Part shown: positions 35,001-39,407 of the stretch, piece by piece
Position numbering within the stretch: the stretch's first letter is position 1
Layout of the letters: every line of letters begins with the position of its first letter
Assembly: GCF_009931435.1 (NCBI RefSeq)
Contig: NZ_CP043414.1
Reading direction: 5' to 3' (one strand)
From: Escherichia coli
GTDB taxonomy: Bacteria > Pseudomonadota > Gammaproteobacteria > Enterobacterales > Enterobacteriaceae
DNA: 64,000 nt
Position numbers: made by a program

Positions 35001-38000
35001 TTTGCTTTTAGTGTGCTGGATATGGTGTTGATGGGCCTGGCCCCCACCATAGGCGCTTTTTCCGTTCCCGGTAAGCAAGAACGCCTGAAAGCAACGGAGC
35101 AACTGGAAAAGCTGGGCATTTTGCATCTGGCGACACGACGCTGGAATACACTTAGCGGCGGTGAACGTCAGCTGGCTTTAATCGCCCGTGCACTCGTCCA
35201 GCAACCGCGCTTGTTATTACTGGATGAGCCTGCCTCCAGCCTCGATTTCGGTCATCAGATCCAACTACTGGACACGCTGGCGCAGCTCAAAAATAACGGC
35301 ATGACAATGCTAATGTCGACTCATCATCCGCTCCATGCCAACGCCATTGCCGACAGCATTATCCAGGTAGAGCCAGATGGACGAGTAACACAAGGCTTAC
35401 CGACCGAACAGTTAACAACGAACAAACTGGCTGCCCTGTATCGGGTTTCTGCCGACCAGATTCATCATCACCTCTCTGCAATTAGCCACTAAGGAACAAT
35501 CATGCTCATTGATGAGATTGATTTTGCGGACCTTTACCTGCAGCAACTCAAGCTGGCCCACCGCACAGAAAAAACGCCGGATCACTGGGATCAACGGGCG
35601 GAAAAAATGGCGGAAAATTGCTCCTCGCCTACGGACAGCTACCTGCAACAACTGACCGCTAAAATTGATCTGCAAGGCGCGCAGACCTTATTCGATATGG
35701 GCTGCGGACCGGGTACCGTATCGCTGGCGCTGGCTGACAAACTCACGACGATTTATGGCGTTGATTACAGTCAGGGGATGCTGAAGGTTGCCGCCCGTCG
35801 CGCCGCCGCGCTAAAGGCAGACAATGTCCACTGGATCCAGCGCGCCTGGGAAGAGGACTGGAGTGACCTGCCACGCTGCGATATTGCCGTGGCTTCCCGC
35901 TCCACTCTGGTGGCTGATATGCGCCAGGCAATGAGCAAACTGAATAATCAGGCACGGCTTCGCGTCTATACGACTCATCTGGTCAGCACCTCGTTCGTCT
36001 CTCCAGCCATTCAGCGGGCGGCTGGTCGGGAAGTGATCGAATTACCCAACTATATCTTTGCGCTCAACGTCCTGTATCAGATGGGAATTTATGCTCACGT
36101 TGATTTTATCCGTGGACAAAATTGCCAACAGGATAACAGCACCTGGGAACGTTTTGAGCAGAACGTCAGCTGGAGTCTGGGCGCGCTTAACGACGATGAG
36201 CGTGAGCGGTTATATCGCTGGTATCAACAACAAGATGCTCGTGCCCTCGCCCCTGCCAGCCGCGACTGGGCGCTCATCTGGTGGGATAGCGTACCGCAAG
36301 AGGCACTGCGATGATTTTCCTTTCTCAGGCACAAATCGATGCGTTACTTCTGGAAGATATCCAGGGCGGTGACCTGACCACGCGAGCATTAAATATTGGA
36401 CACCAGCATGGCTATATAGAGTTTTTTCTCCGTCAGGGCGGCTGCGTCAGCGGAATTTCTGTCGCGTGTAAGATGTTAACTACGCTGGGATTAACTATTG
36501 ATGACGCGGTCAGCGACGGTTCTCAAGCGAACGCGGGTCAGCGGCTAATCCGTGCGCAAGGTAATGCCGCAGCACTTCATCAGAGATGGAAGGCAGTCCA
36601 GAATGTGCTGGAGTGGAGTTGCGGTGTTTCTGATTATCTCGCTCAAATGCTGGCGTTACTTCGTGAACGTTACCCTGATGGCAATATCGCCTGCACCCGA
36701 AAAGCAATTCCGGGCACCCGCTTACTGGCCTCGCAGGCAATTCTGGCTGCCGGAGGACTGATTCATCGTGCCGGATGTGCGGAAACCATATTATTGTTTG
36801 CCAACCACCGTCATTTTCTTCATGACAATCAGGACTGGTCAGGCGCAATCAATCAGTTACGTCGCCACGCACCCGAGAAGAAAATAGTTGTTGAAGCCGA
36901 CACGCCGAAAGAGGCAATCGCCGCGTTACGCGCGCAACCAGACGTACTTCAGCTCGACAAATTTAATCCGCAACAGGCAACTGAAATTGCGCAAATAGCA
37001 CCGTCGCTGGCTCCTCACTGCACGCTGGCTCTGACCGGCGGAATTAATCTAACAACACTCAAAAATTACCTCGACTGCGGCATTCGCCTTTTTATTACCT
37101 CCGCGCCTTATTACGCGACACCAGCTGACATTAAAGTCAGTCTGCAACCCGCAGCCTCTATTTAATTCTTTGTTAAACGGAATTTATTCTATGAGACTCA
37201 AAAAACGTTATCTCTGCACAGCATTATCACTTGCCTTTACCCAGCAGGCCGTAGCGGCTCAGGAGAGTGACACGCTGACCGTATGGTCCAGTCCGGTATC
37301 ATCGACGACGACCACCGTTCTCGATCAACCCACCATGAAGGCCCTGGATAAACAGAATGTCGCTCAGGCATTAAGTGTCGTCCCCGGCGTGGTACTGCAA
37401 AAGTCAGGTAGCCGCAACGAAGAACAGGTCAAAGTTCGTGGCTTTGATAGTCGTCAGGTGCCGGTCTATTTCGACGGTGTGCCCATTTATGTTCCCTATG
37501 ACGGCAACCTCGATCTGGCGCGGATTCTGACCAACAATTTGGGGGCAGTTGAAGTTTCCAAAGGGTATTCGTCGCTGCTTCAGGGGCCTAATCAGATGGG
37601 CGGAGCCATTAATATCACCACCCAGAAGCCAACAAAACCTCTGGAAGCAAGTCTGGGATATCGCCAGGGATGGAGCCGTAGCCAGGACAATGCCTACGAT
37701 ATGCATGCTTCTGGCACAATATCGATGCCGATACCATTCAAAATCAGAACAGCGGCACGGTGGATTACAGCGGTCTGGATGCCGGTATTAAGGGGAAAAT
37801 CAGCAATATACTGGATGTAGGATTGAGCTACGCCCTGATCCACGCTGATACCAAACGTAAAGACATCGGCAAGATAACCGATCTGCCAACGCAGACAATG
37901 ACCGCATGGATGACTCTCAAACCGTGGGAGCCGTTAAGCGTAACGCTGTCGGAAGAGGCGCGTTCCTCCAGCTACAGCAACAGTGACGGTTCACAAAAAG

Positions 38001-39407
38001 CCGCCGGTTTTGCGGTGACCCACATTCGAGCCGATTACACCTTAGGTCATGGCTTCAGCGTTAATGCGTCGGTCAATAACCTGTTTGATACCAAATATGC
38101 CTACAGTGAAGGGTTTATTGAAGAAGGTCGCAATTTCTGGGCAGGTGTCGAATATACGTTCTGATGTGAAAGCGGATAGCAACATCTGTATCGCTATCCG
38201 CCTTATGAAAATCTTATTCTCTTCGCAGGAGGCGGAAAACACCCAGCACCAGGATAGCGCCCACTACCGCCACCAGGAAGCTGTGCAGATTAAAACCACT
38301 GATGGAGCCGCCAATGCCAAACATGGTCGCCAGCCAGCCGCCAACCACCGCACCGATTATCCCGAGAATACAGGTCAGGAAAAATCCACCACCATCACGC
38401 CCCGGCATGATTAGCTTGGCGATAATGCCGGCTATCAGGCCAAAAATAATCCAGGCAATAATTCCCATGTTCAGGCCCTCGTTTCGATGAATCGGACGCA
38501 AGAAATGCTTACGTCAACGCTCTAAGTATAGGCAAGGGCGGGATCGATGCTGGGCGTTTGTCGGCTGATTTAAGAACAACATGTAAAAAATATTCACGCA
38601 TTTGTATTAAGTTTTGTTAACTGTGACCGATAAACCAAAGACAGTTTGTCAGTCAGGAGTTTTTCCGCGTGAGTCATTACCATGAGCAGTTCCTGAAACA
38701 AAATCCGTTAGCCGTCCTGGGCGTGTTACGCGATTTGCACAAAGCCGCAATTCCTTTGCGTATCAGTTGGAATGGCGGGCAGCTGATCAGCAAAATACTG
38801 GCAATAACCCCGGATAAACTGGTGCTGGATTTCGGCAGTCAAGCCGAAGATAACAACGCTGTGTTAAAGGCGCAACACATTACCATTACCGCCGAAACCC
38901 AAGGCGCGAAAGTCGAATTTACTGTTGAACAACTACAGCAGAGTGAATACTTGCAGCTTCCGGCATTTATTACCGTACCGCCTCCCACCTTGTGGTTTGT
39001 ACAACGACGCCGATATTTCCGCATCTCCGCCCCACTCCATCCGCCTTATTTTTGCCAGACCAAACTGGCGGATAACAGTACGTTACGTTTCCGCCTGTAT
39101 GATTTGTCGTTAGGCGGCATGGGCGCATTACTGGAAACGGCAAAGCCTGCCGGATTGCACGAAGGCATGCGCTTCACTCAGATTGAAGTCAACATGGGGC
39201 AATGGGGTGTTTTTCACTTTGACGCCCAATTAATCTCCATCAGCGAGCGCAAAGTGATTGATGGCAAGAATGAAACCATCACCACTCCCCGTCTGAGCTT
39301 CCGTTTTCTTAACGTCAGCCCGACGGTGGAGCGGCAATTACAGCGGATTATTTTCTCTCTCGAGCGGGAAGCCCGGGAGAAAGCGGCCAAAGTGCGCGAC
39401 TGATTTA

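Follow-up and report, generated by a model that had tools for sequence, protein, structure and literature searches.

When the receptor gene of an uptake operon looks broken, has the gene really been lost, and was it lost through decay or because its loss was of benefit to the cell? The question is raised by a window of 64,000 nucleotides (nt) from Escherichia coli (assembly GCF_009931435.1, contig NZ_CP043414.1), the whole stretch of DNA analysed here, in which six co-oriented, closely packed genes lie at 32.7-38.2 kb, flanked by treA and ymgE (Table 1). The last of the six, prrA, codes for a TonB-dependent receptor, which a preliminary description of the window had taken to be internally deleted and frameshifted. 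Alignment with full-length homologues agrees with this: 997 nt have been lost at a junction that maps to 37711/37712, and the reading frame is shifted. The answer that we propose, with a probability of about 0.9, is that prrA is dead through an inherited 997-bp deletion and that this represents ordinary gene decay.

A deletion in the middle of prrA

In intact genomes prrA measures 1971 nt and codes for 656 amino acids (aa), as annotated in RefSeq for strain 2020CK-00188 (locus L001, coding sequence 6292-8262) and likewise for strain 155 (locus L002). The ATG and the stop codon of the window copy coincide with the start and stop of this annotated intact gene. A gapless comparison with L001 matches 37191-37711 to reference nt 1-521 with 5 mismatches and 37714-38164 to reference nt 1521-1971 with none, which makes 5 differences over 972 retained bases, the 2 nt of the junction not counted. 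The net loss, which is no multiple of 3, removes residues 175-507. Loss of a large part of the barrel had thus been recognized correctly, although the 333 residues missing exceed the roughly 300 codons first estimated. The remnant keeps 98-99.5% nucleotide identity to intact E. coli alleles and, among the megablast matches listed, intact genomes cover the region with 2,598 bp in two aligned pieces versus 1,601 bp in the window.

Translation from the ATG remains native through S174, continues with 35 out-of-frame residues and stops at 37818-37820, giving an open reading frame (ORF) of 209 aa. The native C-terminal frame picks up at 37715 with H508 and ends with ...NFWAGVEYTF and the stop codon; the last barrel residues in another frame that the preliminary description had put at about 150 amount to exactly 149 codons. 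This 3′ remnant has neither a native start nor a signal peptide, its earliest possible start being GTG at 37760.

The two ends of the deletion share a 2-bp TC, and a single event of illegitimate recombination or replication slippage most likely cut the 997 bp from the middle of the gene. A repeat-mediated deletion or hotspot was also considered and rejected: alignments of the breakpoint regions score no better than random pairs drawn from within the gene (fraction with an equal or higher score, 0.24 for direct and 0.88 for inverted orientation). The repeat search found nothing at the breakpoints, direct or inverted.

Recurrence of the allele and normal length of the receptor

Could a continuous 1971-nt gene have been present in the true genome and lost only in assembly or sequencing? 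A collapse of 1 kb by misassembly at repeats is conceivable and we found no evidence supporting it, repeats at the breakpoints being no more than expected by chance. The breakpoints, in turn, recur in independent material. In a megablast sample of 5,426 complete E. coli genomes, a 160-nt query spanning the junction was matched in one piece by only nine, all independently sequenced (hereafter the nine remnant genomes). Contigs with precisely the 209-aa frameshift product of the window number at least 97 in three archives (NCBI, ENA and Logan), and a continuous ORF was not found in these independent data. Across 12.6 kb, run SRR27493683 (L007) as assembled by Logan shows 100% identity to the window, and ERR9385337 (L008) carries the identical deletion allele on a locus with 98.4% identity to the window. 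We therefore regard an artefact, raised as a concern at the outset, as extremely improbable. The 24 carrier contigs that were examined all show one gene neighbourhood, with products of 340, 326, 252, 270, 284, 209 and 134 aa. The flanks reach at best 98.9-99.0% identity to any complete genome, so that the RefSeq complete set does not include the lineage of the window, and the exact junction has no match among GTDB species-representative genomes. Most of the differences between the window and L008 concentrate at 42000-43500.

The operon is present in about 2,140 of the sampled genomes (~40%) and absent from ~60%. At least 80% of the gene is found in one place in 2,139 of the 2,149 complete genomes having it, large prrA deletions being confined to 10 of 2,149. 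Receptor homologues from Citrobacter, Serratia, Hafnia, Shewanella, Providencia and Pseudomonas measure 642-694 aa, and the few shorter entries are partial or disrupted genes. Receptors of the size left in the window are thus not normal for the family.

Consequences for the receptor

The first ORF contains a complete Pfam Plug domain (PF07715; E 5e-22, profile positions 7-107 of 107, residues 39-139), preceded at residues 27-34 by the TonB-box-like motif DTLTVWSS. The latter corresponds to the alignment consensus DxMTVWSSP, whose tryptophan, W32, is invariant in 36 homologues. The earlier claim of a TonB box and plug in frame up to about residue 175 is accordingly accurate. Features of a signal peptide, recognized by eye only, precede them (MRLKKRYLCTALSLAFTQQAVA/AQES, with a basic n-region, a hydrophobic core and an AxA site). 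The second ORF matches Pfam TonB_dep_Rec_b-barrel at profile positions 326-436 of 436 only, which is the last quarter of the domain (E 8e-07). It keeps the C-terminal aromatic residue, a signal for the barrel assembly machinery, on a polypeptide that is not joined to the exported part.

An AlphaFold2 (AF2) model of the intact protein, built with 36 homologues, shows a plug followed by a barrel (predicted local distance difference test score, pLDDT, 85.9; predicted template modelling score, pTM, 0.86), residues 1-28 being modelled at pLDDT <50. The barrel has 22 strands, as counted from the DSSP list with two short breaks taken as bulges. Over its full length the model superposes on OprC, PqqU and BtuB with template modelling (TM) scores of 0.72-0.81. 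The intact homologue resembles these 22-strand TonB-dependent transporters and ShuA in possessing a TonB box, a plug and a full barrel, with a sequence identity to the four of just 14-19%; by sequence it was also matched by ShuA, FyuA and PirA, chiefly across the plug.

Placed on the strand map of the intact model, the deletion begins in the last part of strand 2 and extends almost through strand 15, so that about 13.5 of the 22 strands are gone. In contrast to OprC, PqqU, BtuB and ShuA, the window copy has a plug, about 1.5 N-terminal strands and the last 7 strands in another frame. The complete in-frame 22-strand barrel by which a functional TonB-dependent transporter is recognized is lacking in this copy, and from the architecture of the family we infer that no closed barrel can form. 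What the gene still encodes is at most a plug fragment of 209 aa, presumably exported, whose last 35 residues are a nonsense tail. Without a barrel, the substrate would no longer cross the outer membrane via PrrA, in line with the inactivated outer-membrane gate proposed in the preliminary description.

One may ask whether the short or split receptor is instead a normal functional variant, working as two pieces, as a minimal form or through rescue by ribosomal frameshifting. Both pieces do retain open reading frames, which overlap at 37760-37820 in different frames. Yet close and distant homologues are all single ORFs of 642-694 aa, the C-terminal piece has no signal peptide, a fused product would reach only ~323 residues with ~8.5 of 22 strands, and the structural matches are all complete transporters of ~580-760 residues. 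We give this explanation next to no credence.

Stages of operon decay in public genomes

Each of the five genes upstream of prrA equals its counterpart in the intact operon in length and is free of internal stops, which bears out the preliminary description for the transporter and the two enzyme genes. The closest intact operon is that of strain 2020CK-00188, from which the window differs by 22 nt in these five genes and by 5 nt in the receptor remnant.

The nine remnant genomes, whose origins include Mali, South Korea, Canada and Japan (e.g. E200086, Z0117EC0005, 24A16CRGN010 and AST85), share with the window identical breakpoints of the 997-bp deletion. Unlike the window, they are also devoid of the 4,667 bp corresponding to 32873-37539, a stretch that starts at codon 46 of the binding-protein gene and reaches into the plug; this second junction is blunt. 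At the operon remnant of these genomes the Prokaryotic Genome Annotation Pipeline (PGAP) annotates two pseudogene fragments. Three stages thus exist in public genomes, namely the intact operon, the operon with its receptor deleted, as in the window, and the operon with most of its genes deleted. Read in this order, the window appears as the earlier, single-deletion stage of a two-step decay.

An independent lesion affects prrA of Shigella flexneri (L013 5149-7103, GCA_029609605.1), where 16 bp, nt 438-453 of 1971, are deleted, as opposed to 997 bp in the window. The resulting pseudogene consists of a 185-aa plug ORF and a 486-aa barrel ORF. As in the window, the receptor is broken; gene calls for the other five deviate from full length by one residue at most. 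The 486-aa form represents 568 member sequences. In E. coli strain 155 the receptor is intact, and the methyltransferase gene is a PGAP pseudogene with an internal stop (L002 4603-5415); the downstream ycgR of this strain is split by an IS3-family element. As judged from these annotated loci, different genes of the cluster appear to be breaking in different lineages.

Inheritance and cause of the loss

The deletion is inherited, being carried by many isolates on at least two diverged flanking backgrounds. The preliminary description had left the choice between recent decay and reliance on another receptor. Decay is favoured because the nine genomes with identical breakpoints have lost most of the remaining operon; another receptor is possible. 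Decay is favoured too by the repeated loss of the cluster, which ~60% of complete E. coli genomes lack and which was not detected in O157:H7 lineage II (PMC1890555), and by the lesions of other lineages, namely the 16-bp receptor deletion of S. flexneri and the methyltransferase stop of strain 155. The five upstream genes would still be intact either as too little time has elapsed or as some other entry route keeps them useful, and the locus would stand midway in the reductive decay of a dispensable accessory operon.

Several observations weigh against decay following one inherited deletion. At three single-nucleotide polymorphisms (SNPs; 37550 and 37849-50) the nine remnant genomes side with a distant allele, the window with the intact L001 allele, so that a single origin requires later recombination near the junction. 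The five upstream genes are without lesion in both carrier haplotypes and differ mainly by synonymous changes, and such clean genes are as compatible with continued use as with a deletion of recent date or with recombination involving intact operons. Finally, of 2,153 places in complete E. coli genomes that match an intact receptor, 8 lie on plasmids, and a second receptor copy beyond the 64-kb window, for example plasmid-borne, is possible.

The SNPs first raise the question of whether the same 997 bp were deleted twice at a hotspot, independently in the lineage of the window and in that of the nine genomes. The junctions also differ by one base, reading TCTG in the window, L007 and L008 versus TCTC in the nine genomes (L003-L006 among them), and some 10 further differences separate the remnants. 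The differing base, position 37713, is G in the window and C in the nine genomes and in all intact alleles. On the other hand, both breakpoints agree to the base with a microhomology of only 2 bp, and direct and inverted repeats stay within chance, which makes an independent recurrence very improbable. Moreover, the flanks are mosaic, their identity to different relatives shifting from side to side, as recombination predicts. Breakpoints that match to the base with no repeats beyond chance argue strongly for one deletion event, which recombination would then have followed, and we hold two origins to be quite unlikely.

A second question is whether loss of PrrA was adaptive. FhuA, BtuB, FepA, Cir and other TonB-dependent transporters commonly serve phages and colicins as receptors, and resistance usually arises through their inactivation. 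A knockout of PrrA might similarly have been selected as an escape from a phage, from a colicin, microcin or other bacteriocin, or from an immune response, the other five genes being used via another outer-membrane route. Several facts could be understood in this way: the receptor is also the broken gene in S. flexneri, with the other five genes about full length; the neighbouring genes are kept in 24 of 24 carrier contigs examined; and two diverged backgrounds carry the allele, which is seen on at least 97 contigs. In addition, the ratio of nonsynonymous to synonymous polymorphism (pN/pS) of the five upstream genes is 0.18 between two carriers, compared with 0.15-0.17 between the window and two intact operons, at a synonymous divergence (pS) of 0.014-0.053 versus intact E. 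coli operons. Nevertheless, this ratio cannot separate decay from continued use, as recombination may shuffle in polymorphism older than the deletion. The loss of most of the remaining operon from the nine genomes implies that it is dispensable there, and large deletions of prrA are rare (10 of 2,149 complete genomes). The window holds no alternative receptor, its other large outer-membrane proteins being autotransporters, and we know of no phage or bacteriocin that uses PrrA. Adaptive loss thus seems to us improbable, though less so than two separate deletions, and neutral decay is ranked ahead of it.

Relation to a known cluster and its possible substrate

By position and gene content, the operon can be identified as the prrA-modD-yc73-fepC cluster, also designated O-island 55 or S-loop 83 of O157:H7 (ECs1693-ECs1699) and the 'GR 9, ymgE..treA' region of extraintestinal pathogenic (ExPEC) and avian pathogenic (APEC) E. 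coli (PMC1890555, PMC12928451). The 'ymgE..treA' genomic region is common to ExPEC, APEC and adherent-invasive (AIEC) strains, a role of the cluster in iron uptake is termed no more than 'proposed' or 'possible' (PMC1890555, PMC12928451), and the cluster was not detected in lineage II strains of O157:H7 (PMC1890555). The window shares with it the site between treA and ymgE, the published limits being 'ymgE..treA', as well as the binding protein, FecCD permease, ATPase, methyltransferase, ModD and TonB-dependent receptor. The O157 table for ECs1691-ECs1698 also fits the window by its listed content: ycgR, ymgE, a TonB-dependent receptor, a molybdenum transport protein, two hypotheticals, an ATP-binding protein and a permease. 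In contrast to the intact cluster, the window has the 997-bp deletion and frameshift in prrA. Our literature search retrieved no experimental study of the function of the cluster and no description of the 997-bp-deletion allele. Fragment proteins of this kind are held by NCBI as 'Plug domain-containing protein, partial'.

The operon is thus already known, RefSeq lists its remnant form under pseudogenes, and the loss of an accessory receptor gene through a deletion is a routine part of genome decay; no new kind of system is revealed. The practical use lies mainly in annotation: the cluster of the window lineage ought not to be scored as a functional uptake system, even though five of its six genes look intact, and schemes that type virulence or iron-uptake genes by whether the cluster is present would over-call it. 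The locus provides a small, clean example of the stepwise decay of an operon, and the independent lesion in Shigella hints that the outer-membrane component may tend to be lost first.

With regard to the substrate, the Pseudomonas aeruginosa homologue of the receptor (45% identity; L009 8001-11521) adjoins an Oxidored_molyb protein, a MoaA-like radical-SAM gene and narGHJI. This context, together with the E. coli gene called 'ModD', hints at a molybdenum-related substrate rather than iron. A Shewanella locus (L011 4263-10004) holds the binding protein, permease, ATPase, methyltransferase and receptor and has no ModD.

Organization of the operon and its surroundings

The order of genes in the window is treA, the operon, ymgE, ycgR, emtA, ldcA and cvrA, identical to that in strains 2020CK-00188 and 155. 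Compared with L001, the binding-protein gene is of equal length (coding sequence 1836-2858), has 1 nt different and contains no stops. The permease gene, whose start overlaps the stop of the binding-protein gene, differs by 2 nt, and the ATPase gene, overlapping the permease gene by 4 nt, by 4 synonymous changes. ModD reaches 499 bits against NCBIfam TIGR01334 (E 4e-150), for which the cutoff is 179. For the methyltransferase (35502-36314), the top NCBIfam match is 'corrinoid protein-associated methyltransferase CpaM', at 43 bits far under the 180-bit cutoff.

Table 1. Coordinates of the operon, of its flanking gene treA and of the parts of the prrA remnant in the window
Feature	Position	Strand	Basis or remark
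treA	30705-32405		precedes operon
Periplasmic substrate-binding protein, 340 aa, operon gene 1, intact	32735..33757	+	Pfam Peripla_BP_2
FecCD-family ATP-binding cassette (ABC) permease, 326 aa, intact	33757..34737	+	Pfam FecCD, E 3e-89, profile positions 2-311/311
ABC transporter ATPase, 252 aa, intact	34734..35492	+	Pfam ABC_tran, E 1e-30
Class I S-adenosylmethionine (SAM)-dependent methyltransferase, 270 aa, intact	35502..36314	+	Pfam Methyltransf_25/31; length equal in L001
ModD, 284 aa, quinolinate-phosphoribosyltransferase-like, intact	36311..37165	+	NCBIfam TIGR01334 modD; Pfam QRPTase_N and QRPTase_C
TonB-dependent receptor (prrA) remnant, last operon gene	37191-38164	+	ATG 37191, stop 38162-38164
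5′ remnant of prrA, native codons 1-174: putative signal peptide, then TonB box DTLTVWS, plug, barrel strand 1, most of strand 2	37191..37712	+	gapless match, translation, Pfam, AF2 strand map
Deletion junction	37710..37713	+	breakpoint 37711/37712; 2-bp TC microhomology at 37710-37711
Out-of-frame tail, 35 non-native residues (GTISMPIPF...AIYWM) and stop	37713..37820	+	translation
3′ remnant of prrA, native codons 508-656 and stop: end of strand 15, strands 16-22	37715..38164	+	identity, Pfam, frame analysis, strand map

Upstream of the operon, an 11-pair hairpin at 32686-32711 (TCGCTATATG...TATATAGCGG) is followed by a T-rich run, about 25 nt before the start codon of the binding-protein gene. 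It overlaps a TTGACA-type promoter-like site at 32664 and could be a candidate operator or attenuator of the operon. Promoter and terminator scans stayed at chance level, an Rfam scan of 32000-38700 returned no family, the cobalamin riboswitch included, and no Fur box was matched upstream of the operon at up to 3 mismatches. The sole Fur-box-like site of the window lies at 21652-21670 (GAAAATGATAACCAGTATC; 3 mismatches, against a chance expectation of 0.01 such sites); the gene for a 955-aa autotransporter (22131-24998) begins some 460 nt further downstream.

Further along the window, cvrA (41125-42861) is a full 578-aa ORF, and PGAP calls this gene a pseudogene 'missing C-terminus' in 6 of 6 E. 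coli loci examined (L001-L006). A variable island just downstream of it encodes a 470-aa leucine-rich-repeat protein (43548-44960). Two other features are unrelated to prrA. The ORF of hlyE (haemolysin E; 54538-55593, 351 aa) has an N-terminus extending beyond the Pfam HlyE match, which begins at residue 52, and a 743-aa autotransporter of the AIDA/pertactin type is encoded on the minus strand at 61178-63409.

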